A stretch of 64,000 nucleotides of DNA, taken from the NCBI GenBank assembly GCA_030390025.1, contig CM059431.1, forward strand, positions 120,964,001 through 121,028,000. Direction: 5' to 3'. Positions 6,471 through 63,771 of the stretch are shown piece by piece (position 1 is the first letter of the stretch; the number at the start of each line of letters is the position of its first letter). This DNA comes from Squalus acanthias. Taxonomy: Eukaryota. The notes beneath the pieces are model-generated. The model made no database searches, was not told where the DNA came from, and saw only the letters and a list, made by a program, of their open reading frames with translations. The translations under genes and the position numbers were made by a program.

Positions 6471-6727
6471 CCTAGACAATCAAGCACTTTTGCCTCACAG
6501 CTTCTTACCAGAGCTTCGACAATGGCCAAGAACCAGTGGATCCCTAACAATTTGACCACCATACTGACAATTGCCAGTTATCCTAAAGCCTCATTGTGGA
6601 AGTCCCATTAGCGAAATGACAGAGGCCACAACTGCAGCAGTAGCCATCAGAGTTTTTATTTACACTTAACATCTGATGGCTTTTTTACATTAAACATCAA
6701 ATTTCACCCAAGTGACTACCCTTGTGA

Positions 6728-9726: not shown

Positions 9727-9744
9727 ATAGTTTCGGAAAACCAG

Positions 9745-17489: not shown

Positions 17490-18651
17490 GTGGGGGCTGC
17501 ACTGATTGGGGGCGTCGTCCTGCACCACCAGAATCGGAGGACACAGAGACGCAGAGAGAGAGTGGCAATCATGGCCAGATTGAGGAGGGCCAACAGGCCT
17601 CTGTACAGGAGACCTTACCCTCCCAGGGTATATCGCCAACAATTCACATATATTAACATGTCTGAGGAGCAGTGTTTCCGAAGGCTGCGCTTCAGCAAGG
17701 AGGTGGTCACTGAGCTCTGCCACCTGCTGCAGCCAGATCTGCAGCCTCAACTGAGGTCCAGGATGTCTCTGTCGGTGGCAGTGAAGATCACAGTGGCTCT
17801 GAACTTTTATGCCACTGGCTCATTTCAAGCTGCTACTGGGGGACATCGCCAATATCTCCCAGTTCGCGGTGCATTGCTGCATCCGTCAGGTCACAAATGC
17901 CCTCTTTAAAAGGAGACGAGAGTACATCTCTTTCCCCATGACCCCAGAAAAGCAGCAAGAACGCGCAATGGGCTTTGCTAGGATAGCGGGCTTCCCCATG
18001 GTGCAGGGCGCCATTGACTGCACGCATGTGGCTTTGCGTGCTCCGCATGAGAATGCCGAGGATTTCCGCAACAGAAAGGGGTTCCCTTCCTTGAACGTTC
18101 AGTTGGTCTGTGACCACAGACAGCTGATACTCGCTGTCAATGCCCACTATCCTGGCAGCTGCCACGATGCATTCATCCTGCGCCAGACTACTGTGGCAGA
18201 ACTTTTCCAGGCACCGCATCAACCAGTTGGTTGGCTTCTTGGGGACAAGGGATATCCACTGAGCACCTGGCTGATGACACCGCTCCGTACGCCCAACACC
18301 CCTGCTGAGCTGCGGTACAACGAGAGCCATCAAGCTACCAGGAACATCGTTGAGCACACAATCGGCGTGCTCAAGCAACGGTTCCGCTGTCTCGACCATT
18401 CTGGAGGAGCCCTGCAGTACTCGCCTGAGCGAGTTTCCCACTTCGTAGTTGTGTGCTGCATGCTGCATAACCTGGCAATCCTCAGGACCCAGCCAATGCC
18501 ACCAGGCCTTGGAGCACCACCAGAGGAGGAGGAGGAAGAGGAGGAGGAAGAGGAGGAGGATGATCATCAGCAGCACCAAGGCGGGAGGGAGGCCTACAAT
18601 GTAGAAACTGGAAGGGCCGTCCGTCAACGGCTGATAGCAAGCCGCTTCTAG
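17490..18651 (+). pseudogene. Harbinger transposase with a single +1 frameshift in the G5 run at 17838-17842; start uncertain
   Basis: ORFs 17421-17909 and 17809-18651 join at ATG.DI. Intact GAIDCTHV, CHDAFIL, LLGDKGY and IVEHTIG (DDE triad). Confidence 0.85.
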
Positions 18652-18950
18652 GCCCCTGCTGAGGAAATGGCTTCTGCCATTGAGAACAACATGAATGAAA
18701 CCAACCCGCAACCCCTAAGCCGGCCAAGGCACCAATGATTCCAAAGACCAAACATGTATATTTTGAATACAAAAACTTATTTATTTCACAAACTCTGTGT
18801 GTGTCATTTCCTCATGACAAACTAATAGAAAGAAACACAAAAACACAGTCATTAACATAACTGGTTCTCATAACCTGGAGATAATGTTCAAAAGTTTGAC
18901 CACGAACCTTAGCCTTTAATAAAAAAATGACCAACATTTTGTCACCGCTC

Positions 18951-20823
18951 CTACTTTTTGCCCTTCGAGGGTGATCTCCTTCCCTTGCGCACTTCCCCCC
19001 TTCCCACCCTACTGCTCCTCCGTAATGGGACCTCAGTGGCTGCAGCAAGGCTGGTGGAAGGCTGCTGATTGTCAGAACCTGAGACTGCAGATGCCCTTGA
19101 AGGACAGCCTCGACCAGCTCTGGGCCTGGAGGGCCCGGCTGCAGACTGCACCAACTCTGCATGGGCGGCAGCAGTCTGTCCTACAGGCGGTGGCAAGTGC
19201 AGTGGAGAAGTGACAGTGGTGGCAGCAGGAATGCTGTCATCTTGAGAGAGGACAGCAACTCCCTGCTCGAACGACACACTGGCACTCCCACGGGGCAGCA
19301 CCTCAGCATCCGGAGCAATCTGCTGGAGCACAGATTGCTGGCCTGCTGCGGTGCGGTGAGAGCCCTGGGGAAATGTATACAAACCATCGAGGTTGGCAGC
19401 AGTCAGTGCTTGCGTGACCTCAATCTGAGTCTGCATGACAGCAGTCAGAGATGGGATCACGGCAGCCAGTGACTGAATTGCAGCACTAAGCTTTAGTGTG
19501 GCATCCGCCTGTGCTACAGCGAAGTGCTCCACACTCCTTGCCAGTGATTCAATGCATTCGAGCACCCTTCCCACTGCACCCATGAGCTCAGTGTGCATGT
19601 CCACCACCTGGGTGTTCATTTCAGCGATGAGCCGCTCCTCCTCTGCGTCCAGTGCAGTAGGAGTCGCTGGCATACTCTCCCTCGGGGGAGAAGGCCCCCG
19701 TTCTTCCGTACCCCCATGGCGTTGCTGCAGCCCGCTGGGTCCTGGAGCTTCACCCTCATCAGACCCTTCCCCCCTGCTCCCCTCCAGGGACGGCGTGTTC
19801 CCAGTGTGGGCATGGGCTTCCTCGGGAGAGGGTGGCACTGATGCTCCGCCTTCATCTTGCTCCTCGGCTGCAGCTTCACTCCCACTGGCAGCTTGAAGGC
19901 CCGTCTCCTCAGCTGGTGAATCACCATCTGAAAGCAGGGAGGTACAAGAGTGGCTTTAGCGTGAGGACAGGGTGGCAGTAAGGGAGGGATAAGTGCAGCG
20001 ATTTAGTAAGTTGGATTGAAAGTGTCAAAGGCTGGTGTTGTGAGGGACAAGTGGAAGGACAGAGGACAAAAAGGTGATGACCTTACCATTGCTGTCCAGA
20101 ACGGGGTCGGCGTCTCCAGTGGCGACGGGACTGATCACCCGGCTTGCCACAATCCTGTGGACACGCGCCTCAAGATCGCTGAGGGGTTGCAGCTGAGGCC
20201 GCCCTCCACCCGTCCGTTGGTGCTGTTTCCTATTATGAGATAGCTTGGCCTGCAAGAAAAAGGACGGCGTCTGAGTAAATATACAGCCATGGACTTGCCT
20301 GATGTGCCTACCATAGGTGAATAGCCCTTACTGTATGCAGCCATGGACTTGCCTGATGTGCCTCCCATAGGTGAATGGCCCTCACTGTATGCAGCCATGG
20401 TCTTGCCTGATGTGCCTCCCATATGTGAATGGCCCTTACTGTATGCAAAGTGTGGAATGTGCGTGTGTGTTTCATGAGAGGGCCATAGGTGTTGGATGAG
20501 TGTTGTGCATTGGGGTTTTAAGACCCTCTGGCCATAGAGTGAGGTTGAGATGGAGGGATGGAGAGGTATTGAAAAAAAGGCACTCACCCTGACGATCCGA
20601 GTGAGGTCGTTGAACTTTTTTCGACATTGTATATGGGTCCTGGGCACCATGCTCCTGGAGGAGACGCTCTGAGCCACCTCCCTCCACACTCTTCTGTACA
20701 CGCGCGGCAAAGGCCTCCTGCCACTCTCAGGGAAGAGTATAGATCTTCTGCGTCCACCACGCCAACCAGAGCCTCCAAGGCCCGCTCACTGAAGCGCTGA
20801 GCTTGTTCTCTCACCCTCTCCAT
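18951..20823 (-). pseudogene. Harbinger Myb/SANT-like gene, 3 exons, one frameshift near 20753
   Basis: MERVREQAQRFS...W.EVA...RTHIQCRKKFNDL; GTGAGT donor at about 20587; exon 2 AKLSHNRKQHQRTGGGRP; exon 3 acidic/coiled-coil ending RRSSR...KGKK. Confidence 0.8.
20284..20445. repeat. 54-bp tandem repeat x3 in intron 1 of the Myb-like gene
   Basis: Units CAGCCATGGACTTGCCTGATGTGCCT...ACTGTATG start at 20284, 20338 and 20392. Confidence 0.9.
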
Positions 20824-39270: not shown

Positions 39271-40865
39271 TGTAAGGGATTCTCTCCTGACCCTGCGTGT
39301 CTCGTAGCCTGTGAGATTCACGCGGCTCTGTGCAGCCTGTATGTCAGTGCGGGTCTAGGCCTGGTCTCCAGCCAGTCTGGGAACACTAGACACCCCTGTG
39401 AGTGGTTCGAATCACTCTCCCTTACGGTTCTAGACACTGGACTTAGATGCGAGAGCAGTAATGGAGATAAAACTCATGTAGACTTGGTTTGAACGGTACG
39501 AAATGGAAAATCTTTATTGCATGATACTTAAAATTATGAAATACATGTCATATGCACAGATTAATGACAGTACAATCTTACAAACAGTTATAATCACTCT
39601 TAGGGAAACGAGGAACGAACGGCACAACGTAAATAGGGCACACATTACAAATATCCTTAATCTTTAACCCTCCCCTATCAATAGCTATCCTAAACTAGCT
39701 GCGTAGGATCCCGAGACTCATGCTCACCACTCGTAATAACTCGGAGAAATCCCGAATAGCTGATCGGATGTTTTTCACCGCAGCACCCACGTGTTGGTCA
39801 GGAGATCTCCTGGTCCCACTTGTTTACTGCTTTTGCTGCTCGGTCAGTCGGCTGGACCGTCCGCTGTAGTGAAGACCTCTGTTGGTTGGATACAAGGTAT
39901 GGTGGAGCACCGTTGTCAATATCGCTGATACGATGTGTTTGCACAGTCCAGTTATCATCGATGCAATATGTCTTGTTAAAGAAGAAAACTTCCTGTCGAG
40001 AAGACTTGGCTGATCGACCTACAGGCGCGGTCGGGATCTACTGACCGTGGCGATGGATAAGGTCTTCTTCTCTTCTCCTCTCATCTCATCTCATCTCATC
40101 TCATCCCGGGCCTTCGGTTCCGCTGCCAGCTACCAACATAGGTCTTTGCAACAGTCTTTTACACAGGAGCAGCCACGATGATAACAGCAACAAGCGGCAA
40201 GAGTCAAGAACACGAGGCAAGAGCAAGAGCAAGAGGCCAGAGAGCGAATGGACGGTTTGGGGCCTGCAATTATAGTGCACAGTTCTTCCGTTTCCCGCCC
40301 AACTACAATGTCCATTCTTTTGTTTACGGTTTGGCGCCCAAAATGTCCTGTATGGGTGATCTCCGTCCTTAATGGGTTTCGGGGCTACTCATGAATGTTT
40401 GAGTACCTGCTAATATTTCTCCCATTGTTAAATCGGTCGGTGTTCCCCCTGGAGGGGTTTGGGGCTTCCAAGTGTCCTGTATAACTACCTGCTAACGGCT
40501 CTCTCATCGTAGAGCCGTTGGGAGTTTACATATTAATGTCCTTTGGATGGGCCCTTGATGGCTTTCCTTTGTACCTGGGAGACCGATCCCAGTATCGATG
40601 TTTATACTGTAAACCCATAATGTCCTGTGTATTGTCTTCACTGTGCTGAATCGTTATCGATCCTGCAAAAATGTTTATTGGAACGCCATCTTGTCTGCCT
40701 GCTGAAAAGTCTAGAATGTTCTGTCACGAGGTGCGGCGGCCATTTTACAGGCTGCTTGTGTCCAATTTAAACCTGACAGCATTCCGCTGAAATAAAAGCT
40801 GTTTTGAACGAAACTTTGTGTTTTCTCCTCATTAAAATGAAATCGCGATAATTGCGAATTCTACA
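39271..40865 (-). repeat. 3' LTR
   Basis: TGTAAGGG...TTCTACA on the plus strand. It matches 46925-48519 with no difference noticed by eye, and the ORF track reports identical ORFs at a constant offset. Confidence 0.95.
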
Positions 40866-40877
40866 GTCCCTCCTGTT
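40866..40877 (-). other. Polypurine tract (AACAGGAGGGAC)
   Basis: Purine-rich run immediately 5' of the 3' LTR on the minus strand. Confidence 0.75.
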
Positions 40878-41289
40878 GATGCGAATAACTCCGCTTATCG
40901 TATCAAAAATCTCAGTGGTGAGCAATCTTATCTCGATTTCACTCCGAATCCAGTAAATTAATCCCATAAATTTTAACTTCACTAGGGTCTCTGTGTCGTC
41001 CTCATTTCCCAAGAAAAATCACACTTTATATCACCATAGGCATCATTTGCCCTTAAACTTACACCACTTGTTTTCCTTCCCGGCGTAACCAGGCCGATAC
41101 CTCACGCATCACCTGTATATTTGTCTTTTATTCAAGGGAAGGAAAAACAAAACCCAAAAACCAAACAATCAACACCATCACCAAAATAAACAAATCCCAA
41201 CTCTTAAACATGTCGAGTTTCCAACGTATTTACAATGAGTACAAACTTCCGCGGCGCACGTGGCGAGCGGGAGTGACGCCATTTTCCCA

Positions 41290-43641
41290 TTACACTGCGC
41301 TCTCATCGTGCACGCGCACGTAACGTTCTCGCCACTCTCCCGTGTTCTCATGCTTGGTGAGGCGCTTGTCTCTTTTACAATGTATGAACAAAAGGTATAC
41401 TACAATAAACACTTGACAGACGACTAAAATGTGGGAGGCTATTCTGACCCATGAGGGCACTTCAATATTCGTGAACAGATTCCACCACGGTGGAACCACT
41501 ATGTCCAAAATGTCTGTACCTATCTCGACGGTTTTCTGTTCTAATGTATAGAAATGCTTTTGTGACACCGCGACGGCTTTCAGAAGTTTGGTTAAATGCT
41601 CAGGGAGAGGGGGAATGAGGTACCCAAAATGCGCGACAAATCGCTGCAAGTCGGTGAAATTCTCTTTTACTGTGAGATGAACAGTGGATGGTTCAGGGAT
41701 TGGGATAATTCGCTGTTGTGCTACTTGAACTTCAGCCCTGGGTTTAAAACAGAAACTGCTGTCACTCACCGGACACCGGCTACGGTTTCCATGCTGGTAG
41801 TGTTGCGCTGCAGTGGTAACACAATATGTTCCACCCCCGATGTATGCTACCTGCGGAGGCACATGATCTTGTGCCATTGCCTCCATGGTGCAATTCATGG
41901 ACTTGGCGCCAGCCGTTCTGAACCCGCACTGTGGTGTTAAAAAGGCATTCAAGTGCTGGGGGCACAGTATTATGTGTGCTCCCCTGCCACGACAACCAGA
42001 GAGATCTGTACCTGTCATCGTTTGCTCCCAGCGGATGACGTAAGGTGGAACTGCTGCATAACGAATGTGGGCTCCCCCCTGAATGACACCAATGTTCTCT
42101 ACCCGATACACCGGGGCGGGCTTTGCTGTGTTGCCCAAAACCGGCATGCGTAATACTATTCCCATAATAGTATGGTTTGAACGTCCGCAGTCCACGGGGA
42201 CTGGGTAAGCTTCTGAAGCTAGCCTGAGCTGGCACGGACTTAATGCGTTCTGAAAAGGGTGGAGCGCCCGCAGGTGTTTGTTACTTATCCAGGACGGGAC
42301 CAAACCTTGTTTTAAATCCTCCAAATTACTGCGGCCCTCGCCCAGTAACCACGCCCCGTAAAGCACGCACACCTCGTTCTGCGCAGCTTGATCGGATGCA
42401 TTCCGATCTTCCCTGATCAGGGCATTTACCGTACGCGCATGTTTCTCCAGCTCTGCTATAATTTCCTTTAAGTGTAGTGTCATGGCTTGGTCCTCGTGCA
42501 GACCTGACCCTACCACTTTATTCTCGTCTGTAAGAATATCCTTTAACTGTGTTTTTAAACCATTAATCTGGGTCTGCAGCTCCACACTGTCTAGAGCGTT
42601 GACCACAGATGTCCCTGTATTAAAGGCAGTGAACGCATCGTTCACCAAACCCCTTCTTTGCCTCCCTACTTGGTCCAAAACTTCCTGCGGTGCGGTGTAT
42701 AAACTTGTCTTATCAATTTCTGCAAAATCAAACTCGTAAAATTGCCTGAACATCTTGGTCAACAGGACCTGGTACAACTGTTCCGTCTTTTTGGGGCACC
42801 ACTCTGGTAACCGTACCTCAGTGAGATTTAAAATCACCGAGGCCACCGCGTAATGTACCCCCTGAAATAGTATCTGGTCTGTGGGGACCAGTACCAAACC
42901 GTTCCCGGGTCCCTTACTAGTTTTAGGGCACCCTTCTTCCTCAGTTAGAACTACCGGGATCGTGGGCGGGGCTTTGCGTGGGCGCGTAATGAGCTCAGTG
43001 GCATTTACTGGGATCGGAGAGTATGGGGCTCCGCACCCCCTGGTGCTCGCATCCCACCTCATCCCCTGTCCGTTATCCTGCCACTGATTAATAAAGAATA
43101 TGGAGATGCCTTTGGGGCAAACGTACTTTGACCCCCACATACAAACATAAATTCCCTCATCCGGTTCCCACCATTTGTCCCAACAGACTTTCACTTGTCC
43201 GTCTGTCCCCGTAATTGTCCGATGGGTATTATTACCCAGTCGCTCCCACTCAACCGAAGAGTTCCTCATAGTTTTGCTCAGCTTTCGCAGCCACCACCAT
43301 CGGCTCAATGGGACATTCCCACTGCAGGTCAAACAAATCCGTTTGCCGACGGTGACGCTGATCCTGGGTGCGATGATCCGTACTTTGGGGCACATTAAAG
43401 AAGTCTCTTTATAGGCGAACCCCGATGTGCTGGAATACTCCGTTGAGTTCGTTCCCAGCCATCCTGGCCACCTTCCCTTGTGGAAATAGGTGCTGGTCCC
43501 TTCTGCCTTCCGTCTCCCGGTCCCATCCACCGCGATGGGGGCCGTGTCCCCGGAACATCCAAACACCACGACATCCTTGGTGAGGCCCCGATAGGCCAAT
43601 CCACATCCGATTGCCACGAGCAAAACTAGAAGTCGTTCCAT
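41290..43641 (-). CDS. env: Envelope / class I fusion glycoprotein (783 aa), F-protein-like, with an N-terminal Ig-like domain
   Basis: Signal peptide MERLLVLLVAIGCGLA; Ig-like LTC...W...DEGIYVC; furin site RQRR (aa 327-330) followed by a fusion-peptide-like segment and heptads; Cys-rich region; W-rich juxtamembrane segment; TM ILVVCQVFIVVYLLFI; short tail; several NxS/T sequons. Confidence 0.88.
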   Translation of the reverse strand: MERLLVLLVAIGCGLAYRGLTKDVVVFGCSGDTAPIAVDGTGRRKAEGTSTYFHKGRWPGWLGTNSTEYSSTSGFAYKETSLMCPKVRIIAPRISVTVGKRICLTCSGNVPLSRWWWLRKLSKTMRNSSVEWERLGNNTHRTITGTDGQVKVCWDKWWEPDEGIYVCMWGSKYVCPKGISIFFINQWQDNGQGMRWDASTRGCGAPYSPIPVNATELITRPRKAPPTIPVVLTEEEGCPKTSKGPGNGLVLVPTDQILFQGVHYAVASVILNLTEVRLPEWCPKKTEQLYQVLLTKMFRQFYEFDFAEIDKTSLYTAPQEVLDQVGRQRRGLVNDAFTAFNTGTSVVNALDSVELQTQINGLKTQLKDILTDENKVVGSGLHEDQAMTLHLKEIIAELEKHARTVNALIREDRNASDQAAQNEVCVLYGAWLLGEGRSNLEDLKQGLVPSWISNKHLRALHPFQNALSPCQLRLASEAYPVPVDCGRSNHTIMGIVLRMPVLGNTAKPAPVYRVENIGVIQGGAHIRYAAVPPYVIRWEQTMTGTDLSGCRGRGAHIILCPQHLNAFLTPQCGFRTAGAKSMNCTMEAMAQDHVPPQVAYIGGGTYCVTTAAQHYQHGNRSRCPVSDSSFCFKPRAEVQVAQQRIIPIPEPSTVHLTVKENFTDLQRFVAHFGYLIPPLPEHLTKLLKAVAVSQKHFYTLEQKTVEIGTDILDIVVPPWWNLFTNIEVPSWVRIASHILVVCQVFIVVYLLFIHCKRDKRLTKHENTGEWRERYVRVHDESAV

Positions 43642-43925
43642 CCTTCCTTGGTTCCTGTGATCAGATAGAATGAGGTAGCCAGCCTCGCAAAAAGTCTCTG
43701 GCTTTTGTGAAGGGTGAGCGGGTCCCCTGACCTCGCCTCACGTAAACTTCAACGTTTGCTAAATAGACTTCCTCTAAACCTAGCCTTAAAACTCCCATCA
43801 TTTTGTCGTTATCTGTTAAAAACACTACAAACTTAACCTTATTAAAACTACTTAAAACCTTAAACTAAAACTTAAAACCTTAAACTAATAACTTTACAAT
43901 GCCGCCCGTTCTCAGGGCGGCCCCT

Positions 43926-44828
43926 TTAAATCCTGAGAAGGCTGCTGCGAGCTCTTCCCGACGGTGGGAGGGCACTGACCCTTCCCTCTGATCTGCCGCA
44001 GCCTGTTGCTGCGCTGACCCTTTCCTCTGATCTGCCGCAGCCTGTTACTGCTTCGATGTGGCCTGTCTCTACCCGGGTTATCTTAACCTGAAACTTACGC
44101 CCTGGGGCAGTCTGTGGACCTGACCACATCCTCCTGGGCTGGGGTACTCTGCTTGACCTACGGGGAGTTGCTATGGGCGGGGGCTCCGTGACGGACGGAC
44201 CGGGTTCCGAGACCTCCAACGGGATGACCTGGGGTTCCATCACAGTCGCCAGCTCCGCCTCCGCTGACTCCGCCTCCCTAACCTCGGGGCTGGCAGTTCG
44301 TGGCCCCGCCCTGCTCGGCCCAGCAGGCGGCCCTTCACTCGTGAACTCTGCCTCCCCTGAGGACTGGACGTTCAAAGCGGGCGGCCACACCTCTGGGAAC
44401 CACATTGGTACTCCCTGTGCTCCTATGGCGGCTGGCCCTGCCTCCTCTAGCTCCTCCCTCCTGTTGTCGGGACCTGCAGCTTGTGTGTCCACCCCGTGTG
44501 GATCTCTACCTATCGGCCCCAATCCTCCCAGACCGTTCCTCCGGAACCACCCGTCATCATCACTATGCTCATCTGCACTATCCTCATCTGACCAGGGTAC
44601 CCTGGGGTCCTCGTCATCTAACCCCCAACTCCAGAAAAACGCTGCATGATCGTCCGGGATGTCCCTTCCCCTGATGCAAGCTGCTACGCCTGCCTGTGTG
44701 CCTTGTGGTCCTACCTGGGGCTGTGTCTTCCCCACTCGCAGGTCTGGCCCCTCCCTTAAGACAGGCCACCGCCCCTGCTTGTTTCTGTGAAATCTCACCT
44801 GCTGGAGGCTGCAGATTTCTATCCTGTT
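43926..44828 (-). CDS. Acidic/proline-rich ORF of unknown function between gag and env; no ATG at its 5' end
   Basis: Stop-free frame 44828-43926 containing WSWGLDDEDPRVPWSDEDSADEHSDDDGW, RRSSR and a 13-aa duplicated unit TGCGRSE.RVSA. Confidence 0.45.
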   Translation of the reverse strand, partial: NRIEICSLQQVRFHRNKQGRWPVLREGPDLRVGKTQPQVGPQGTQAGVAACIRGRDIPDDHAAFFWSWGLDDEDPRVPWSDEDSADEHSDDDGWFRRNGLGGLGPIGRDPHGVDTQAAGPDNRREELEEAGPAAIGAQGVPMWFPEVWPPALNVQSSGEAEFTSEGPPAGPSRAGPRTASPEVREAESAEAELATVMEPQVIPLEVSEPGPSVTEPPPIATPRRSSRVPQPRRMWSGPQTAPGRKFQVKITRVETGHIEAVTGCGRSEERVSAATGCGRSEGRVSALPPSGRARSSLLRI

Positions 44829-45108
44829 TTAAATCCTCATACTCCCTGCTCCTGGCTACCCTGTAGGCTGTTTTTATCTCTCTAAGCTGCCCTTCTAGCC
44901 TGAGCACGTCTAACTTTCCCATTGCTCGGGCATTCTCCTCCCGCAGGGCCTGCTCTCTAAGCTGCCCTTCCAGCCCATCTATTTTCTCTATTAAGCGGGC
45001 GTTCTCCTCCCGCAAGGCCTGCTCTTTTAACCTGGCCTCCTCACCGCAGACCCCCTCCTGTGCGTGTCTTTTAAAAGGACACAGGTAGGCAGGCTGCGTG
45101 GGCTCTAG
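44614..45108 (-). CDS. In-frame post-gag extension (164 aa, coiled-coil), putative readthrough product
   Basis: Codon walking shows the frame of ORF 44614-45015 stays open back to the gag TGA (45109-45111). The context is CAA TGA CTA G. EQALREENAR...LEGQLR occurs twice. Confidence 0.6.
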   Translation of the reverse strand, partial: LEPTQPAYLCPFKRHAQEGVCGEEARLKEQALREENARLIEKIDGLEGQLREQALREENARAMGKLDVLRLEGQLREIKTAYRVARSREYEDLKQDRNLQPPAGEISQKQAGAVACLKGGARPASGEDTAPGRTTRHTGRRSSLHQGKGHPGRSCSVFLELGVR

Positions 45109-46920
45109 TCATTGGGTACTATTAGACGGTCCTGCGGCACCTACGGGGCCGGTTGCGACCGCCACCTGTCCACGCGCATTCAAAACCATCTTGCGCATGA
45201 CTCCTAACACTGCTTCGAGGTCTTCGGGAGAGGTGGGTGCCTTTGCTTCCTTAGCCGGGACAGGCGCCTGGGTTCGGACCGCGGGATTTTTATCCTTGGA
45301 ATCCTTCCAAGGGTTCCTGCAGTGCTTGCGCCAGTGCCCTGTCTTCCCACACCCGTAACAGGCATTACTTGCCTGTGGGGCGCGATTACCCTCCTGATGC
45401 CACTCTCTTTGAGTCGGGGCTGCGGGTCGTACCTCATGTACTCTTCCCTTAAAGGGACGTGTCGTCATACCCCTTATGTTACGGTAACCCAACGTAAGTC
45501 GATTCAAGACCGACTCTTCCGTAAGGTTGAGGTCATTGGGATCGAACCAGGCTTTTGCCTGCTCTCTAACGGCTGGTAAACTGTTGGCTATTATGCACCT
45601 AAGCCAATGAATTAAAGCGGCGCCTTCCACATCTTCGCGTTCGGGCGCACCTAGACAGCTGCGCTCATATACTGGCCACAGCCTGTCGGCAAAAACCTTC
45701 GGGGGTTCTCCCTCCATCTGCACTGTCTGTCCCACTCTAGCAAACGGACCTCCGTCGTTCGCTCCCACTACTTCTAGGACCTCATTTTTCAATTCCTCAT
45801 AACTTTTATTACCCCTCTTGCTATCGCCTGAGAGACACTGAAGGACCGAGCTATCTAACGAGAACAGCAGCATTTTTGCTGTCTCCCCATCATCGCAGCC
45901 GTTGATGGCTGCGGCTTGCTCAACTTCCCTAAAATGTACGGAAGGGTCGTCTATCTCGGTCAGCTTCCTTACGTGGTTTATCATGGCCCTCAGCTGATGT
46001 GAACTGTGAGGCAACACCAGCTGTCCGAGGAGATCCCCCGGTTCTTCCCCACCGTTTCTGCTTGGGCCCCTTTTAATACCCGTTACTGGATACAACGATC
46101 CCTTTTCTACCTCCTTTTCAACGGGCTCTTTTGCTTCTTCCGTTGCTTCCTCCCTAACCCAGGTTTCTGAATAGCTGGGTGGCGCGGAGGGCGCAGTGGC
46201 TACTACTTCTTCTGCTTTACTTGGTGGGGAATTTCTAAATCTCTCATTTACTAGCGGCTGGCGTGCCGACGGATTAATAAGGCACACCATGCCGTTCGCA
46301 TTATTCACGGCCTTTTTGAGGCTCTCTATCTCTTTTTCGCAGGCGCTATGGTCGGCTCCCTGAAACTTATCCTCAAGGGCCAACTTATACGCCGACCTAA
46401 CCCCCATTAAGCTCTCTTCTTGAGTTCTTATCTGGGCAGCTTGACGGTTACATCTTTCCTTCATCCTACTCTCGTTTAATTTTGCTTCAGTGATCTGGCA
46501 CTCGAGATACTCTACCCTTGTTTTAAGGTAACTGGAGACTTCCTGGCTTTCCTGGCGTAACTCATGTAAACTCTTAATGAGCGCCTCCCCTCCAGAAACC
46601 TTCTCCTCCATTTCCTCCTCTAACTGCTTGATTCGAGCGGTTAGCGCTGTATTGGTCTGGTTTGAAATCTGAACCTGCCTTTTGTAGCACATAAGCCAGA
46701 CTGCTTTCTCAACTGCCTTTTTATGCTCCTTACTATCAGTCCACCTTTCAGCTGCCTCTAGTGGGCTCTTATCCGCTAACAATTCGCTTATCCACTTTTT
46801 CGTTAGATTAACCTTTCCAAATACGTAATCCGCTATCTTTTCCTGCATCACATTTCGTACAGTCATTCCAAAATCTAACACACTACCCTCTCGCTGCCAG
46901 TGTCCTGCCGCGGTCGCCAT
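45109..46920 (-). CDS. gag: Gag polyprotein (603 aa)
   Basis: N-terminal coiled coil, PSAPPSY late-domain motif, capsid-like helical region and CX2CX4HX4C knuckle CYGCGKTGHWRKHC; located directly after the 5' LTR/PBS. Confidence 0.88.
   Translation of the reverse strand: MATAAGHWQREGSVLDFGMTVRNVMQEKIADYVFGKVNLTKKWISELLADKSPLEAAERWTDSKEHKKAVEKAVWLMCYKRQVQISNQTNTALTARIKQLEEEMEEKVSGGEALIKSLHELRQESQEVSSYLKTRVEYLECQITEAKLNESRMKERCNRQAAQIRTQEESLMGVRSAYKLALEDKFQGADHSACEKEIESLKKAVNNANGMVCLINPSARQPLVNERFRNSPPSKAEEVVATAPSAPPSYSETWVREEATEEAKEPVEKEVEKGSLYPVTGIKRGPSRNGGEEPGDLLGQLVLPHSSHQLRAMINHVRKLTEIDDPSVHFREVEQAAAINGCDDGETAKMLLFSLDSSVLQCLSGDSKRGNKSYEELKNEVLEVVGANDGGPFARVGQTVQMEGEPPKVFADRLWPVYERSCLGAPEREDVEGAALIHWLRCIIANSLPAVREQAKAWFDPNDLNLTEESVLNRLTLGYRNIRGMTTRPFKGRVHEVRPAAPTQREWHQEGNRAPQASNACYGCGKTGHWRKHCRNPWKDSKDKNPAVRTQAPVPAKEAKAPTSPEDLEAVLGVMRKMVLNARGQVAVATGPVGAAGPSNSTQ
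46902..46919 (-). other. Primer binding site, tRNA-Arg(TCG)-type
   Basis: The minus strand reads TGGCGACCGCGGCAGGAC, complementary to ...GTCCTGCCGCGGTCGCCA, which I recall as the vertebrate tRNA-Arg-TCG 3' end. It lies 5 nt from the LTR. Confidence 0.85.
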
Positions 46921-46924
46921 TTTC

Positions 46925-48519
46925 TGTAAGGGATTCTCTCCTGACCCTGCGTGTCTCGTAGCCTGTGAGATTCACGCGGCTCTGTGCAGCCTGTATGTCA
47001 GTGCGGGTCTAGGCCTGGTCTCCAGCCAGTCTGGGAACACTAGACACCCCTGTGAGTGGTTCGAATCACTCTCCCTTACGGTTCTAGACACTGGACTTAG
47101 ATGCGAGAGCAGTAATGGAGATAAAACTCATGTAGACTTGGTTTGAACGGTACGAAATGGAAAATCTTTATTGCATGATACTTAAAATTATGAAATACAT
47201 GTCATATGCACAGATTAATGACAGTACAATCTTACAAACAGTTATAATCACTCTTAGGGAAACGAGGAACGAACGGCACAACGTAAATAGGGCACACATT
47301 ACAAATATCCTTAATCTTTAACCCTCCCCTATCAATAGCTATCCTAAACTAGCTGCGTAGGATCCCGAGACTCATGCTCACCACTCGTAATAACTCGGAG
47401 AAATCCCGAATAGCTGATCGGATGTTTTTCACCGCAGCACCCACGTGTTGGTCAGGAGATCTCCTGGTCCCACTTGTTTACTGCTTTTGCTGCTCGGTCA
47501 GTCGGCTGGACCGTCCGCTGTAGTGAAGACCTCTGTTGGTTGGATACAAGGTATGGTGGAGCACCGTTGTCAATATCGCTGATACGATGTGTTTGCACAG
47601 TCCAGTTATCATCGATGCAATATGTCTTGTTAAAGAAGAAAACTTCCTGTCGAGAAGACTTGGCTGATCGACCTACAGGCGCGGTCGGGATCTACTGACC
47701 GTGGCGATGGATAAGGTCTTCTTCTCTTCTCCTCTCATCTCATCTCATCTCATCTCATCCCGGGCCTTCGGTTCCGCTGCCAGCTACCAACATAGGTCTT
47801 TGCAACAGTCTTTTACACAGGAGCAGCCACGATGATAACAGCAACAAGCGGCAAGAGTCAAGAACACGAGGCAAGAGCAAGAGCAAGAGGCCAGAGAGCG
47901 AATGGACGGTTTGGGGCCTGCAATTATAGTGCACAGTTCTTCCGTTTCCCGCCCAACTACAATGTCCATTCTTTTGTTTACGGTTTGGCGCCCAAAATGT
48001 CCTGTATGGGTGATCTCCGTCCTTAATGGGTTTCGGGGCTACTCATGAATGTTTGAGTACCTGCTAATATTTCTCCCATTGTTAAATCGGTCGGTGTTCC
48101 CCCTGGAGGGGTTTGGGGCTTCCAAGTGTCCTGTATAACTACCTGCTAACGGCTCTCTCATCGTAGAGCCGTTGGGAGTTTACATATTAATGTCCTTTGG
48201 ATGGGCCCTTGATGGCTTTCCTTTGTACCTGGGAGACCGATCCCAGTATCGATGTTTATACTGTAAACCCATAATGTCCTGTGTATTGTCTTCACTGTGC
48301 TGAATCGTTATCGATCCTGCAAAAATGTTTATTGGAACGCCATCTTGTCTGCCTGCTGAAAAGTCTAGAATGTTCTGTCACGAGGTGCGGCGGCCATTTT
48401 ACAGGCTGCTTGTGTCCAATTTAAACCTGACAGCATTCCGCTGAAATAAAAGCTGTTTTGAACGAAACTTTGTGTTTTCTCCTCATTAAAATGAAATCGC
48501 GATAATTGCGAATTCTACA
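46925..48519 (-). repeat. 5' LTR (TATA-like 47923-47928, splice donor 47381, AATAAA 47167-47172)
   Basis: Direct repeat of 39271-40865, followed by the PBS on the minus strand. Confidence 0.95.
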
Positions 48520-50350
48520 GGAGCCAATCAGAGAAGGGAATCTCCCTTCATACATTTGACAGGAAAACCTGTCAAATATATGAATGGAAATCACCCCCAA
48601 AACATAATAAAACTTTAAATACATTTTTTTAAAAATCACATTTTTAAAATGACTTTAAATTACATAAATTAAGTATTTTAAACAAAAGTTTTATTTTTGG
48701 AAAAAAATAATTTAAGTTTTTAACGGGGCTAAAAATAAACTTACCTTTCTTTAAAGTATTTTTATATGATAAATCAGTGGAAACATTGTTTTTTTACTTT
48801 TTTCAACTCTTATCCTGGTAAAAGCAAGCCTTACACCTGCTTTTACCAGGCGCAAGAATTGTAAATGTTTTCTGCGGGCGGAGGGTCTCCAAAAAACAGA
48901 ACTCTCCCCCCGCAGAGGCCCTGCTCCAGGGCAGCCGAAGGATCTGTCAAGAGCTTTCTTGACAGATTGGAAATGCCGGTTTCCAGCGCATGCGCAGTGC
49001 ATGCCTAAAACCGGCATTTCCGTTGGCCCTACGGGTGAGTACACAGCGCGTACACACCCGTAGGGAACGGAATTTCTGCCTCAGTATTATGTAGGGATGG
49101 CTCTTGAATCGCTTTAGACATGGGCAGGGATTTAACTCAGAGGCGGGGAAGGAGCAGGGCAGCTGAATTACGGTCAGGAAACCCGGGAGAATGAGTTTCC
49201 CTCAGGCTCTGCCGAATTTAACGGCAGGGCCTTGGAACACTTTCTTTTCTCTGTTGGCACCAGGCCACAGCCGGGGAGCAGAGAGGAGGGAGGGAGGGTT
49301 CGGAGGCCGGAGGGGAGTCGGGGGCCGGGGATCAGAGATCAGAGGCCGAGGGTGGAGGCTGGAGATCGGAGGCCGAGGGTGGAGGCTGGTGATCGGAGGC
49401 CGGATGGGGGTCGGGGGCCGGGGATCGGAGATCGGAGGCCTCGGGGGTGATGTCAGAGGCTGGGGCTGGGGGGGGGGGGAGGAGATCGGAGGCCTCATGG
49501 GGGAGATTGGAAGGGTCGCGGGGTGGTGGTGTCTGAGCGCGGTGGGGTGGGCGAGTCAGGTACGCTAGATGCAGCAGGTAAGTGGAAAGGGACTTACCTC
49601 CCGTATCCAACAGTCCTCGTCTTCCTTTCGTTGCCGGGCTCCCCAAGGCCAGGGAAACCCGGCCACCCAGACTTAAATCTAAAATGGTGTTTCGAAAAGA
49701 GGCACGCAGCCTCATTATAATATTTAAATGGTCAACCCGCCTCCTGGGAACGGGTTGGCCCCCCGGCCCCCCATCTCGCCTTCGTTCAAGCCAAAAGTTG
49801 GAAGCGTGTTGGGATCGGGATTCAGATTTCTAACACTGTAACTTCCCACCTGACCCCCACGCACCCATACATAGTACAAACCTTAGGCATGAAACCATTT
49901 CACTATCGCTCTCTTACTCGGGAGAAACGAAGAGCCCGGCTGCAAAGTTTGGAATTATCTGTGCAGAATGTGCAAGCAGAGCAGGTGTTTATTTTTCCTC
50001 ACTGAAACTGGGCTGTCATGGACCATTGGGGAGTGACTCGATGTGTGTGGTTTAGTTATTTTAACCCATTTCACACTAAATTGCTCATAATTTCAACATA
50101 AATTGGCAATATCACTCATGGCTGGGTTGGGAAATCGAAACATTTACAGATTAGAGGGAGCTGCTGACGCTGACCATGAGTGCTAAAAAATGGAAAGGAG
50201 TTCCCTTCTCCCATCCTGATATCCCTGACCTTGAAAAGCACAAAACAAAACAGATACAAAGGCCGCAATTATAACGATTTCCACGCTCCCCACCCCCACT
50301 GGTGGCAGAGGGTTGGACACGGGGGGATTGGAGTTGGGGTTAAAACATCA

Positions 50351-57300: not shown

Positions 57301-59414
57301 CTGTTTCTCTTTCCACAGATGCTGCCTGACCTGCTGAGTATTTCCAGCATTTTTTGTTTTTATTGCAGTATTCTGTTGGTTGTTTGCATGGTGTATGTGC
57401 CCCATCAATTACTCCAGCTGTTTTCAGTGGGCCACATTGTTGTTCAGATCTCATGGAGTTGCTTTGAAGCCGCATGGCTGAGAGGTATTCTGCTGAATAT
57501 AATTTGAACATGGGAATCATTGCACAGAAGATTTTAAGTGTTCCTTGATGGACAACCGTACATACTTAGGGAGCACATTGCTATTCCTATCCAAACCTCC
57601 CCAAGTTGTTTCACTGTCTAAGTGAATTACGTTGTTATGTGCCTGTGTCAACAGAATTAAAAATAACTGTCATAGTGTACAAAATCTAGGTTGTAATTAT
57701 CTTGGCTAACACTGAGGAATACATGTTCTTTCCCAAATTCATTCTGAAAGGTTCAAATGTCAGGAGACACAGACTGAAAATTAGGAAAACAATTTAAATG
57801 TAACCTCATTACTCAAAGGAGTAACTGAGTTTAATAAGTTAGCAGGGAAGTCCATTGGAGTGGATGCTCAAAAGGCAATTAGAAATGTATTAATGGAGAG
57901 ACGGGATGAAAGAATATGGTGAGAAGGGAGGAAAGTGGGGTTGATATATCCAAAAGGGACAGGATTGTTGGGCTTAATGTTCTTTTCCCATTCTTATAAA
58001 TTCTTATGTTCCTAACCCAAGAAAAATATTGTAAATGTAAAAAGAAAAGTTTTTTTGCAACTGAGAAACATTGCTAAGCGATACTTGCTCATTCTTTGCC
58101 TCCTTTGTATAGTGAAATCCTTGGATAGAATTTACTGCATAATGTGCTATTAACCTAGAGCCTGAGCAAACACCATCTTTGCTTGTCGAACCATCGATAA
58201 TCAAACTCTGCAAATCTTGGTTTGAAGGCAGTCCATTGGATGACATCATTAGAAACTGGCGCATTGAAAGATGTTGTCGCACAGCTGTGTACACATAGTG
58301 CACAAGCACACAGAATGAGAATATGTGGATTGGCAGTGGAGTTGCCCTTTTGAAAGGCGACAGTATAAACAGGGTCAAGCCATTGAGTACATCTTTTTCA
58401 GAATGGGTTTAAGCATAGAATTAGGTCAGGAGGAGCCAGTATTAATGACCTCAGTGTTCTCAAAAGTGAAAATAATGCAGTATTATAAACAGATGTACTA
58501 TTGATACAGACTTCAAACTATTAGACGTAATGCATATCTGACTGTCATAGAGTTATAGAGTTATACAGCACAGAAAGTATTTAATATAGATATTCTATGT
58601 ACTTATCTTTGAAGATTTACATATATCATGCAATTTTGTTTAACAGTCTCATATATTTCCTTTAACACTTTAACACTTTCCTGTCTTACATCACACTACT
58701 TCCATCAAACTTGTCTGTGCAGCCCCCATTGGCGGCCAAGCCTTCAGCTGTTTAGACTCAAATCTCTGGGTCCCGGATATTAACAGGGGTGGGTTACGTG
58801 CAGGGGATGGGGAGAGGTTTTAACTCCACAGCATGCGTCTTTTCTCCTTGACAGGTTGCATACCCGGAAGTCCTAATTGACAGGCTTGGGTTCCAGTCGG
58901 GTGGGTAGGACTTCGGAACAGGCCGCAGGCCGCAGGAGCAGGTAGATCCATTCCACGACCCGGGGGGGTTCCGATCCCCAACCCCGGGTGTCTTTTAATG
59001 GGAGGGGTCTGATTGGGGGGGAGCTTGTGGGGCCGGTTAAATCAGGTTAAATCGGAGGCTGCCAGCCTCATTAAAATAGTTAATTTTCCAACCCGCCTCC
59101 TGGGAGTGGGATGGCTGCCCGCCCTTGACCCACCTCTGTTAAACCCGGAAGTGGACAGGCTAGAGGCGGGTTGTGGTCGGGCTTGAGATTATTAAAATTT
59201 TAACATCTGACCCAAAACCAAACCCAGCCATTTTGGGGATTAAAATTCACCCCTGGGCTTCCCTCTCGAAACTTCTCCACCTCTCCACCTCTCTCTCTCT
59301 CCCCTTTAAGACGCTCCTTAAAATTTACCTCTTTAAGCAAGTTTTCAGTTATCTGTCCGAAAATCTCTTTCTTTGGCTCAGTGTCAATTTTTGTCAGATT
59401 ACGCTCCTGATAGG

Positions 59415-61560
59415 AGGACCTTCTCCTCCTTTGAGCATCTCACCTTGTTCCACTCCTCTCGACTCTCTTTTAAAATCCTTGTTCTCTATCGCCCACCCAA
59501 GTCCCATGCCTCTTTCTCCACCCACATCACCCTTCTCCCTCCCAACCCTACTTCCTCTTTTGTCTGCCCCATGGAAAAAAACACCCTCAATTCACTTACA
59601 GTGGCGCTTTCAATTGCCCAACTGTCTAGCTTTTGGCCCTCCATTCATCATAACATTTCTGCAGCTCAATCTGCTCAATCACAACCTCGCCTCCACCTTT
59701 GAAGCCCTTGTCCCGAGTAAAACCATGACTCTCTCTCTCACCCTGGTCGACCCCCCTGGTACAGCCCTCATCTCCTCTCCTTTATTTCCAAGAGACGCAG
59801 ACTTCAATGTTGATGATGGACAACTGGTTTAGTCATTCATCGCCAGATCTGGCTCGACCACATAAAGCACTATCGGGTCCTGCTCTCCTATGCCAAAAAC
59901 TGCTCACTATTTCAGGATCATTCTGGAATGCAGAGATAAACCTCCTCTTCTCCACTACAAATCATCTTCTTAAACCCCTCTCTCTTGCCCCATCCACCCA
60001 AACCTCCAACAACAAGTTTGAGGAGCTTGTGGATTTCTTTGTCACTAAGACTGAGACCATCAATTCAGCTGCCTCTGCCACTTCCCCGAGCCCACAATGC
60101 CAAGGATCCCCCCTGCCCTAGTCCTGAACTCGCATCTTTCTCTAGTTTCTCTCCTATCTCCCCTCATGCCCTCCCCAAGCTCTTCTTGTCCCTGAGACAC
60201 ACCTCCTGCTCCCTCAGCCCTATTCCCACCAAACTGCTGATCACCCAACTTCTCTTCCTGGTCCCCAAGTTAGCTGATATTATTAACGGTTCCCTCTCCT
60301 CAGATACACTCCCCCTCTCCTTCAGATCTACCGTCATCACCCCACTCTTTGAAAAACCCACCCTTGACTCCTCTGTCCTTGCAAATACCATCCCATCTCC
60401 AACCTGCCTTTCCTCGCCAAATTCCATGAATGTGTTGTCGCCTCCCAAATATGTGCCCATCTTTCTCGCAACTCCATGTTTGAACCTCACCAATCAGGTT
60501 TCTGCCCCTGCCACAGCACTGAAACTGCCCTTACCATAGTCACGAATTACATCCTTTGTGACTTTGACCGTGATAAACTATCCGTCCTCATCCTTCTCAA
60601 CCTGTCTGCAGCTTTTTAGATGGTTGACCAGACCATCCTCCTCCAACATCTCTCCTCCGTTTTCCAGCTGGGTGGGACTGCCCTCACCTGGTTCCATTCC
60701 TATCTATCCAGTGATAGCCGAAGAATCACCTGCAATGGCTTCTCTTCCCATTCCTGCACCGTTACCTGTGGAACAATGTTCCCTGTAATTTTTTTGGCAC
60801 CGCGCAACCCTTAAAGGGGCTGCAAGGGCCATTCAAAATACCACACATGCGCAGGTTTTTCTCATTGGAAAGCCGGCTGCGCAGGGTCACTGGAGCTTAC
60901 AGGGAACATTGCTCTGGCGTCCCCCAAGGACCTGCACTTGGCCCCCTCCTATTTCTCATCTACATGCTGCAACTCAACGACAGCATCCGAAAACACAATG
61001 ACAGGTTCCACATGTATGCTGATTACACCATCACTACCTCACCATCCCTCTCTCAAGCCCTCCACTTCCTCTGATTTATCACACTGCTTGTGCAACATCC
61101 AGTATTGGATGAGCAGAAATTTCCTCCAATTAAATATTGGGAAGACCAAAGCCATTGACTTCCGTCCCCGCCACAAACTCTATTCCCTAGCCACTGACTC
61201 CATCCCTCTCCATGGCAACCTTCTGAGGCTGAAGCACACTGTTTGAAACCTTTGCATCCTACTTGACCCTGAGTTGAGCTTCCTACCCCACAGTCTCTCC
61301 AGCACCAAGACTCCCTAATTCCACCTCAGTAACATCGCCCGTCTCTGCCCTGCCTCAGCTCATCTGCTGCTGAACCCCTTATCCAAGCCTTTGTTACCTC
61401 TAGACTCGACTATTCCAATGCTGTCCTGGCTGGCCATCCATCTTTCACCCTTCGTAAACTTGAGCTCATCAAAAACTCTGCTTCCTGTATCCTAGCTCAC
61501 CAAGTCCCGTTCACCATCACCCCTGTGCTCGCTGGCTTACATTGGCTCCCGGTCCAGAAA
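59415..61560 (+). mobile_element. Decayed L2 LINE, same family as 1993-3260
   Basis: [22 protein letters not shown] and [14 protein letters not shown]; many frameshifts. Confidence 0.8.
60774..60911. mobile_element. Small hAT-type MITE inside the L2
   Basis: Perfect 15-bp TIR CAATGTTCCCTGTAA / TTACAGGGAACATTG; degenerate 8-bp flanks CTGTGGAA / CTCTGGCG. Confidence 0.7.
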
Positions 61561-62426
61561 CGAGTAATCAAAGTCACTGATTTACAGTTTCCATGCTTAT
61601 GTGTACATAAAGCATGAAATTTAAGCCCGAAAATGTCACTACTAATCCTAAAATACTCTGAAATAAACTGGAATTTTACGTATTCAATCATCACACATCA
61701 GTGACCCTGACAATGTAAGTAAGGACTTAGGAAAACAATCCTAAATGACTAGTCAGAAGAACGTAAGCTTTTCCGCCCCAGAATATGAGTTTCCCCAGGT
61801 TGTACTTGATTCTCTTCTTGAGAACTTGACTTTGTAATTAATGATCATTCCTCTGAAAATCTGTGAGGATAGCTGTAATATGCTCTCCCCACTCCACTAA
61901 CCATCTGAGGATAGAAGCATTAGGTAACTTGGGCAGAATGAGGGAATAAAACAGAATGAGTGTTTTCACCAAGTTGTTCTGCTGCTTGAGGCGTGCTGGG
62001 GTGGAACTCACACCCATTGTCCCACCCTCGGCGTGAACCTGACCCATATTCCTAGCTTCGCGATCATTTGACTTGCGGGACGGTCTCCAAGTGGGGACTC
62101 CACCACACAGAGGAATCCTATCACTGCTAAGCAGGAAACTCAGCAGTCCTGCAGCTGGAAGTAGTCGACTTTAAAAGGAGCAGTAGTGTCGCAGAGATTT
62201 TGCTTGTCAGCAGTGGCGCTAAAGGCTCTCCATGAGCCTTCGGACAATTCCACATCGGTATGGAGGCAGATGAGAGGGAGAAGTGGGTGCGACAGGCTCT
62301 CTCCCTCCAGCACGGCCAACAATGGGATTCACGCTGCTACCCTGACAAACACCACCATGCCTTCTCTGCTGGTTCCCCGCCTCCACCCAATCCGTAGCCA
62401 TATACATCTGGTGGGCTGTCCAATTG

Positions 62427-63771
62427 TTTTTTTTTTATTCGTTTATGGGATCTGGGCGTCGCTGGCAAGGCCAGCAGTTATTGCCCATCCCTAGTTGCCC
62501 TTGAGAAGGTGGTGGTGAGTAGCCTACTTGAACCGCTGCAGTCCGTGTGGTGATGGTACTCCCACAGTGCTGTTAGGGAGGGAGTTCCAGGATTCTGACC
62601 CAGCGACGATGAAGGATTGACGATATACTTCTAAGTCAGGATGGTATGTGACTTGGAGGGGAACTTGGAGGTGGTGGTGATCCCATGCGCCTGCTGTCCT
62701 TGTCCTTCTGGGTGGAAGAGGGCGCGGGTTTGGGAGGTGCTGCCGAAGAAGCCTTGGCGAGTTGCCGCAGTGCTTCTTGTCGATGGTACACACTGCAGCC
62801 ACGGTACGCCGGTGGTGGAGGGAGTGAATGTTTAAGGTGGTGGATGGGGTGCCAATCAAGCGGGCTGCTTTGTCCTGGATGGTGTTGAGCTTCTTGAGTG
62901 TTGTTGGAGCTGCACTCAACCAGGCAAGTGGAGAGTATTCCATCACACTCCTTACTTGTGCCTTGTAGATGGTGGAAAGGCTTTGGGGAGTCAGGAAGTG
63001 AGACACTCGCCGCAGAATACCTAGCCTCTGACCTGCTCTTGTTGCCACAGTATTGATGTGGCTGGTCCAGTTAAGTTTCTGGTCAATGGTGACCCCCAGG
63101 ATGTTGATAGTGGGGGATTCGGCGATGGTAATGCCATTGAATATCAAGGGGAGGTGGTTAGACTCTCGCTTGTTGGAGATAGTCATTGCCTGGCACTTCT
63201 GTGGCGTGAATGTTACCTGCCACTTATCAGCCCAAGCCTAAACGTCGTCCAGGTCTTGTTGCATGCGGGCATGGACTGCTTCATTATCTGTGGAGTTGTG
63301 AATGGCGCTGAATACTGTGCAGTCATCAGCGAACATCCCCATTTCTGACGTTATGTTGGAGGGAATGTCATTGATGAAGCAGCTGAAGATGGTTGGGCCT
63401 AGGACAGTGCCCTGAGGAACTCCTGCAGCGATGTCCTGGGGCTGTGATGATTGACCTTCAACCATCTTCCTTTGTGCTAGGTATGACTCGAGCCAGTGGA
63501 GCGTTTTCCCCCTGATTCCCATGGACTTCAGTTTTACTCGGACTCCTTGATACCAGACTCGGTTAAATGCTGCCTTGATGTCAAGGGTAGTCACTCTCAC
63601 CTCACCTCTGGAATTCAGCTCCTTTGTCCATGTTTGGACCTAGGCTGTAATGAGGTCGGGAGCCAAGTGGTCTTGGCGGAACCCAAACTGGGCATCAGTG
63701 AGCAGGTTATTGGTGAGTAAGTGCCGCTTGATAGCACTGTCGATGACACCTTCCATCACTTTGCAGATGAT
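62427..63771 (-). mobile_element. CR1-clade LINE, 5'-truncated
   Basis: Motifs LDIKAAFNRV, GVPQGTVLGP, MFADDC and YKAQVRSVMEY; A-rich tail. Confidence 0.85.

Follow-up and report, generated by a model that had tools for sequence, protein, structure and literature searches.

A pol-less, gag- and env-bearing form of a very young endogenous retrovirus family in the shark Squalus acanthias

Introduction

Endogenous retroviruses (ERVs) have been found in mouse, koala and cattle as pairs of a competent form and a defective form of one clade, which share their long terminal repeats (LTRs), the defective form being mobilised in trans to high copy number. The described pairs include the C-type (competent) and D-type (defective) proviruses of bovine ERVK[2-1-LTR], and likewise MusD/ETn and IAP/IAP I-delta-1 of the mouse and KoRV-A/recKoRV of the koala (PMC10924933). 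In the bovine C/D, MusD/ETn and KoRV-A/recKoRV pairs the central segment was swapped for a piece of an old retroelement with the flanks conserved, and the defective form has been called a parasite of a parasite (PMC10924933). Here we describe a provirus without pol located at positions 39271 to 48519 in a 64,000-nucleotide stretch of the Squalus acanthias genome (the window; assembly GCA_030390025.1, contig CM059431.1, positions 120,964,001 to 121,028,000). The provirus keeps gag and env, and the original prediction, made from the sequence of the window alone, regarded it as a candidate helper-dependent enveloped retroelement. Our analysis indicates that it is very probably one member of a high-copy non-autonomous form of a very young ERV family, mobilised in trans by a complete sister provirus.

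The shark pair fits the helper/parasite pattern in every structural respect tested: there are two forms of one ERV clade with shared LTRs and a central swap, and the copy number is high. Three differences were found. The bovine D-type is described as without functional genes, and ETn and recKoRV keep only portions of gag and of env or pol, whereas the shark form carries complete gag and env. For the swapped-in segment of the shark form (segment X) no source in an older retroelement was found, in contrast to the swapped pieces of the bovine, mouse and koala forms. The shark pol-less form is also the minority, with 1,041 junction matches against 2,056 for the full-length form, whereas the D-type makes up 85% in cattle (PMC10924933). 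The pol-less form is unusual among the known pairs in that the enzymes alone were lost. Chicken EAV-HP (ev/J) is alike in that the whole pol is absent and the LTRs and gag/env sequence are kept, but parts of gag and env are lost as well, and the accessible part of the source describes no swapped-in segment (PMC3554524). EAV-HP is moreover alpharetrovirus-like with a conventional retroviral Env. A full-text literature search of limited coverage found no such element in sharks or other elasmobranchs.

Two forms of the provirus

The 3.7-Gb assembly containing the window was searched with the LTR, which gave 41 matches (the best 40 of 3,798 candidates were scored); 40 of them were full-length with 97–100% identity. 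Among the matches listed, the spacing of paired LTRs fell into two classes of about 7.6 kb and about 10.97 kb. We sampled 16 copies from the best LTR matches, nine pol-less (the window copy included) and seven full-length. The leader and gag, the pol tail (1.09 kb), env and the 3′ end showed 98–99.6% identity between the window copy and the full-length form, which has 3,685 bp where the window copy has only the 344 bp of segment X.

The pol frame of the full-length form (1,495–1,500 amino acids, aa) lies in frame right after the gag UGA and was open in all seven full-length copies. The one copy scanned for domains encodes protease, reverse transcriptase (RT), tether and RNase H, the zinc-binding and core domains of integrase and an SH3-like domain. 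Compared with solved structures, this pol is nearest to Ty3, the RT–RNase H of MLV/XMRV, the foamy-virus PR-RT and the PFV integrase, and far from HIV RT. The swap removed the region from protease through the integrase SH3-like domain and kept the pol tail downstream of the latter, in which no known domain was found. All seven sampled pol-bearing copies carry gag and env too, with the same LTRs.

An LTR spacing of 8.4 kb on contig C1 was considered as an intermediate form and rejected, the extra 754 bp being a nested, unrelated, high-copy repeat of about 755 bp in a pol-less copy. This repeat (L038:4117-4870, G000:C1 and many other contigs) gave 5,598 first-look candidates, the best 40 of which had 99–100% identity, and it partly occurs in adjacent inverted pairs, for example at C6:82629955-82631475. 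The repeat is apparently a further mobile element of very recent spread and great abundance, here inserted in a provirus.

Copy number and insertion sites

A 33-mer across the left junction of segment X matched the genome 1,041 times (485 + 556), and the 33-mer at the same position of the full-length gag/pol matched 2,056 times (1,036 + 1,020), both with at most one mismatch; the reversed controls gave 0 matches. The pol-less junction matches were spread across all large contigs listed. With the 344-bp X probe all 40 scored matches (the best 40 of 1,598 candidates) had 99–100% identity and lay on many contigs, and with a 344-bp pol probe all 40 scored matches had 100%.

Seven of the nine sampled pol-less copies have matching 4-bp target site duplications (TSDs), which differ from copy to copy, and unrelated flanks on different contigs; of the other two, one lies in a tandem array and in one the TSD was not resolved. 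Unique TSDs were found in all six full-length copies checked. The two LTRs of a copy showed no mismatch in seven of 12 pairs and 1–6 mismatches in the other five, and two full-length copies have an env that matches that of the window copy at each of 2,352 nt (100% identity).

The pol-less form was also detected in public sequencing runs. Contigs from four runs with four organism codes cover segment X and bridge at least one of its junctions, and in one contig set the full-length form branches off at the right junction. At least half of the sampled 31-mers of the pol-less stretch (window 44400-45300) are present in runs of six different organism codes (A–F), and junction-bridging contigs at 99% identity or more were found in four of the six codes; either close relatives share the form or it moved between hosts.

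Both forms also occur in head-to-tail LTR–internal–LTR–internal arrays, the repeat unit being about 7.7–7.8 kb long in pol-less and about 11.0 kb in full-length arrays. Such arrays were located at G000 C3541 (L041), C430, C21, C1:143657918-143673391 and C3:117088301-117099619.

Structure of the provirus in the window

The element lies on the minus strand, as judged from the sense of its LTRs, a point on which the original prediction was silent. The 5′ LTR (46925..48519) and the 3′ LTR (39271..40865), both on the minus strand, are 1,595 bp each and identical at 1,595 of 1,595 positions; the exact run extends over 1,596 bases, after which 70 of 100 positions mismatch. Read in the sense of the element, the LTRs start with TG and end with CA. 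The TSD is GGAG on the plus strand, at 39267..39270 next to the 3′ LTR and at 48520..48523 next to the 5′ LTR. The primer binding site (PBS; 46902..46919, minus strand, 18 nt) begins 5 nt past the 5′ LTR, overlaps the first ATG of the gag ORF (open reading frame), and is complementary at 18 of 18 bases to the 3′ end of tRNA-Arg(TCG) with its CCA, as encoded by an intron-containing gene of the same genome. At 40867..40877 (minus strand), just upstream of the 3′ LTR, a short purine-rich tract reads as a putative polypurine tract. Uninterrupted ORFs were found for gag (45109..46920, minus strand, 603 aa, UGA stop) and env (41290..43641, minus strand, 783 aa). With its TG..CA LTRs, short TSD, PBS, purine tract, gag with a CCHC motif and env with signal peptide and transmembrane segment, the copy has the organisation of a retrovirus-type provirus. 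Equal-length identical LTRs, a 4-bp TSD, PBS, polypurine tract and both intact genes had all been read from the sequence before, and all of them stood, the polypurine tract as a short purine-rich tract only.

The interval between gag and env is 1,467 bp. It had been described as a gap of about 1.5 kb without pol motifs; the absence of pol domains was upheld, but the interval is no plain gap, as it holds the foreign segment X (44733..45076, minus strand, 344 bp), present only in the pol-less form, and after it the final 1.09 kb of the pol frame. The pol 3′ tail at 43926..44732 (minus strand) matches roughly the final 256 aa of the pol ORF in the full-length form. Pol was exchanged for foreign sequence with its 3′ tail kept, rather than cleanly deleted as the term 'pol-less' might suggest. 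A Pfam scan of gag, env and the tested ORFs of the interval revealed no protease, RT, RNase H or integrase, and the sole match was a Rab11-FIP3 coiled coil below threshold (17.3 bits, cut-off 31.9).

On its upstream side the gag frame continues open into the LTR (620 aa between stops), and there is almost no leader between PBS and gag (46902-46920). Intron-containing tRNA-Arg(TCG) genes form extended tandem arrays on G000 C26, C247, C394, C603, C3245 and C3390, in which they recur about every 1.6 kb (L046:1500-1591 and another 95 matches). In most array members the T-arm is degenerate, and these members may constitute a satellite of tRNA origin; those that look intact match the PBS.

Integrity and constraint of gag and env

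The gag gene was open in 15 of the 16 sampled copies (9/9 pol-less, 6/7 full-length). An open and ungapped env was found in 12 of 16 (6/9 pol-less, 6/7 full-length); env is truncated in the three remaining pol-less copies, and one full-length copy has indels. The pol-less form therefore does not resemble the gene-less parasite forms, which have no functional ORFs.

The ratio of non-synonymous to synonymous differences per site (pN/pS) was calculated from pairwise Nei–Gojobori counts on the ungapped copies only (15/16 for gag, 12/16 for env). For env it was 0.05 over all pairs, 0.05 among pol-less pairs and 0.04 among full-length pairs; for gag the values were 0.28, 0.25 and 0.08, respectively. 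Summed over pairs, the env genes of pol-less copies differ by 161 synonymous versus 28 non-synonymous changes. The env polymorphisms present in at least two copies were 16 synonymous versus 1 non-synonymous, and the singletons 8 versus 6. The frameshifted env sequences of two pol-less copies had 1 and 2 occurrences in the genome and were thus not spread. This pattern is as expected if the templates that gave rise to new copies had a working env, which would point to an infection-type cycle.

Alleles are shuffled between the two forms. All four combinations of form and allele were present at 35 of 51 informative sites in the pol tail and env and at 7 of 21 in the leader and gag, and no fixed difference between the forms was found downstream of the swap. 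Such shuffling is what co-packaging with template switching would produce; ectopic gene conversion would be the alternative.

Features of the Gag and Env proteins

Gag contains an N-terminal coiled coil, a PPSY motif at aa 247 and a CCHC zinc knuckle at aa 521-534. It had no Pfam match, and its identity was recognised from the CCHC motif, which gave weak matches to nucleocapsid chains, together with a language-model likeness to retrotransposon Gag/PEG10 clusters (0.93, 175 shared features).

The env product has a signal-peptide-like N-terminus, followed by an RQRR furin-type site (aa 327-330, window 42652-42663, minus strand), a hydrophobic stretch, a helix of 59 residues, a second helix and a membrane anchor (transmembrane segment at aa 734-756, window 41374-41442, minus strand). 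Forty-nine relatives were found at E ≤0.001 among 1.84 billion representatives, the closest being a skate protein with 74–75% identity. The ten looked up belong to four sharks and three frogs, apart from two unnamed records, and those named by source have no known function. No Pfam family was assigned to Env: PF00523 gave no match at E ≤0.1, nor at E ≤0.01 in 27 aligned relatives, and one relative had a weak Baculo_F match (E 0.0011). Compared with PDB sequences, phmmer gave no significant match and a 27-sequence profile nothing below E 0.1.

A likeness appeared in the predicted structure. The AlphaFold model built from 27 sequences (mean predicted local distance difference test score 57.6) is confident over aa 234-310 and 400-650. 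Its core matched the F protein of human parainfluenza virus 3 (1ztm) with a Foldseek E of 7e-12, and aa 245-660 (window 41662-42909, minus strand) aligned with post-fusion Nipah F over 291 residues (VIA-align Z 12.0, root mean square deviation 5.5 Å); the top 50 structural entries were all F proteins. The model suggests that Env folds like the paramyxovirus F fusion protein, a likeness at the level of the fold only. The modelled core, cleavage site, hydrophobic peptide, long helix and membrane anchor are shared with the F of paramyxoviruses and pneumoviruses; the identity is 7–16%, however, and the shark protein is retrovirus-borne, adds an N-terminal region of about 230 aa and has no separate attachment-protein gene beside it.

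Outside the F-like core, aa 1-233 (window 42943-43641) were poorly modelled. The N-terminal third has a weak similarity to V-type immunoglobulin (Ig) domains (JAM, antibody light chains; E about 1), and a relative from the bamboo shark is labelled 'Ig-like domain-containing protein' in UniRef. This part may be a built-in receptor-binding module.

The full-length shark provirus resembles the lokiretroviruses, retrovirus-like elements of vertebrates which have gag, pol (protease, RT, tether and RNase H, integrase) and a paramyxovirus/pneumovirus-F-like Env with furin-type site, fusion peptide, coiled coil and transmembrane segment; some of them carry an extra coiled-coil (SMC-like) gene (PMC7947760, PMC9040795). 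The F-like fold of the shark Env is predicted by the model and the sequence similarity to PF00523 is absent, which limits the likeness to the fold. The hosts given in these two papers include no cartilaginous fishes, and neither 'shark' nor 'cartilaginous' appears in their main texts.

Segment X and its junctions

The left boundary of the swap is gradual: about 42 bases around the gag stop (transition zone, 45077..45119, minus strand) can be aligned to the full-length form with 8 fixed differences, after which the similarity is gone. The right boundary is sharp. Segment X contains a predicted coiled coil and an internal imperfect repeat, and neither blastn-short nor tblastx found it to resemble the full-length element. 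No homologue was found in a collection of 5.8 billion proteins, either among proteins of 90–287 aa or of 288–2,000 aa, and the language-model features of a protein atlas gave nothing useful (best score 0.86). BLASTP against the element's own Gag gave only a weak alignment with the coiled coil at its N-terminus (E 0.68), a lead that we do not count as evidence. In its own genome, only copies of the element were among the best 40 of 1,598 candidates, and a diverged source could be hidden among the others.

In five of the nine pol-less copies segment X is in frame with the gag read-through and the pol tail, forming an ORF of 386 aa, and a sixth copy has 375 aa. In the others the frame is broken by the nested repeat or a deletion, except for the window copy, which has a one-base length difference of its own close to the right junction; owing to this difference, its ORF in frame after the gag UGA (44614..45108, minus strand) ends at 164 aa. 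The right-junction 33-mer of the window copy is unique in the genome (1 match), and the in-frame variants had 230 exact matches. The pN/pS of segment X was 1.03 in five copies (14 synonymous and 48 non-synonymous differences summed over pairs). With this ratio and no homologue, we do not think that segment X encodes a selected protein. A long hairpin was predicted 9–10 nt after the gag UGA in both forms, formed from different sequences, with its 5′ arm in the transition zone in the pol-less form. The energies were not clearly better than those of shuffled sequences (z −1.6 and −0.4), and the hairpin is a weak hint that a read-through signal may have been retained.

Proposed origin and mobilisation of the pol-less form

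One ancestral event would have replaced 3.7 kb of pol by about 344 bp of unrelated sequence, with LTRs, PBS, gag, pol 3′ tail, env and polypurine tract kept through the swap. The pol-less RNA would be transcribed from its own LTR and packaged, often together with the gag-pol-env RNA of the sister provirus, and would then be reverse-transcribed and integrated by the Pol of the latter; Gag and Env could come from either genome. Pol must come in trans because the pol-less form encodes no protease, RT or integrase. The sharing of LTRs and PBS with a complete provirus, the lack of enzymes and the many copies with their own TSDs are among the features by which a helper-dependent form is recognised. 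We infer co-packaging, an infection-type (env-dependent) cycle and present-day activity from the sequences only.

Much of the original prediction was borne out. It held that the pol-less structure was itself reverse-transcribed and integrated, to be judged by counting copies of the same layout, and the 1,041 junction matches with distinct TSDs and flanks in seven of nine copies agree with repeated integration. Supply of Pol in trans agrees with the failure of domain searches, by which the idea could have fallen, to find protease, RT or integrase in the pol-less copy. The particle and entry genes were said to be kept, and both are open with few non-synonymous differences across copies (pN/pS 0.05 for env, 0.25–0.28 for gag). 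A pol-only partner in a truly bipartite system, also proposed, did not appear: the helper is a complete provirus, with gag and env beside pol in 7/7 sampled pol-bearing copies.

Several points weigh against this interpretation. The env constraint cannot be assigned to the pol-less form alone, because both forms recombine and share one env gene pool. The 34-mer across LTR end and PBS of the window copy had only 674 matches (at most one mismatch); the counts of 1,041 and 2,056 therefore pool several LTR subtypes, on which both forms occur, rather than reflecting a single uniform burst. Tandem arrays exist, and part of the copy number therefore arose at the DNA level. The sample for ORFs, TSDs and pN/pS was small (9 + 7 copies from the best LTR matches), and copies bearing indels were left out of pN/pS. 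Among the public runs with the pol-less stretch none is on record as RNA. The contigs of the four runs examined show no splice joint, and for two of these runs (X1 and X14) an RNA origin is no more than a guess. The mobilisation itself is what we infer.

Most defective proviruses arise by deletion after integration, and loss of pol from a single inserted provirus, or collapse of the gag–env interval by the assembler, was the simplest alternative. Prior plausibility is all that favours it. The same junction occurs 1,041 times with different TSDs and flanks, the replaced segment is foreign sequence and not a simple gap, and contigs of four independent runs bridge the junctions; both versions, which the original prediction had named as possible refutations, can practically be dismissed. 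Multiplication chiefly by DNA-level processes (tandem amplification, segmental duplication, or gene conversion of full-length copies) accords with the tandem arrays, such as C3541, where a third LTR leads into PBS and gag, and C430, C21 and C1 with markers about 7.7–7.8 kb apart, and gene conversion could also yield the combinations of form and allele. We consider it very unlikely as the main route, as seven of nine sampled copies are solitary on different contigs with their own 4-bp TSDs, the matches lie on all large contigs listed, and identical LTR pairs are a signature of reverse transcription. A slightly smaller chance still is given to a transducing retrovirus, in which segment X would be a captured host gene fragment expressed as a functional Gag–X read-through fusion, as in the gag-onc viruses. 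The long reading frame in six of nine copies (386 aa in five, 375 aa in the sixth), the 230 exact matches of its right junction and the hairpin past the UGA in both forms speak for such a fusion; the searches of both protein length ranges and of language-model features without a homologue, the pN/pS of 1.03 without visible coding constraint and the weak z-scores of the hairpin speak against it.

A different question is whether gag and env of the pol-less form take part in its spread. They might be intact merely from youth, the helper always supplying Gag and Env. LTR pairs differing by 0–6 bases, continual refreshment of env and gag alleles by recombination with the helper, and an env already truncated in three of nine pol-less copies would agree with this. 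The excess of synonymous changes in env among pol-less copies (161 versus 28) would not, as the neighbouring segment X lacks such a bias; nor were the checked env frameshifts spread, and parasite forms needing nothing of their own, such as ETn and the bovine D-type, lost their ORFs (PMC10924933). We regard youth alone as a possible but rather doubtful explanation. A bolder possibility is that an infectious retrovirus with an F-type env has in the pol-less form a second genome segment that serves its own interest, making it a nascent bipartite virus or an active drive of a parasite upon a parasite. The segment would then keep gag and env because its own Gag and Env win it a larger part of the particles, by cis-preferential packaging or by a higher output of structural proteins from the shorter genome. 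Its passage between hosts together with the helper would account for the near-identical pol-less sequence in runs of six organism codes. We hold this to be unlikely, and prefer a non-autonomous form mobilised by its complete sister.

Neighbouring sequences in the window

Just outside the element, at 49191-49715, a G-rich stretch coding for Gly and Arg is open on both strands and looks like a tandem repeat. Long stop-to-stop ORFs occur at 2212-20785 and 59164-63237, for example 13076-15025 (plus strand, 649 aa), 5148-6470 (plus strand, 440 aa) and 12114-13121 (plus strand, 335 aa), and may belong to other mobile elements.

Significance

In this genome about twice as many complete helpers stand beside the parasite form, and all copies are nearly identical. 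The Env is paramyxovirus-F-like by its predicted fold and has detectable relatives in sharks, a skate and frogs; F-type retroviral Env was previously described, in the papers cited above, for lokiretroviruses of host groups without cartilaginous fishes. In an apparently ongoing germline invasion of this kind, it becomes testable which viral functions are needed in cis and which can be borrowed, whether env-dependent reinfection drives copy number, and whether defective forms damp or drive the expansion of an ERV family.

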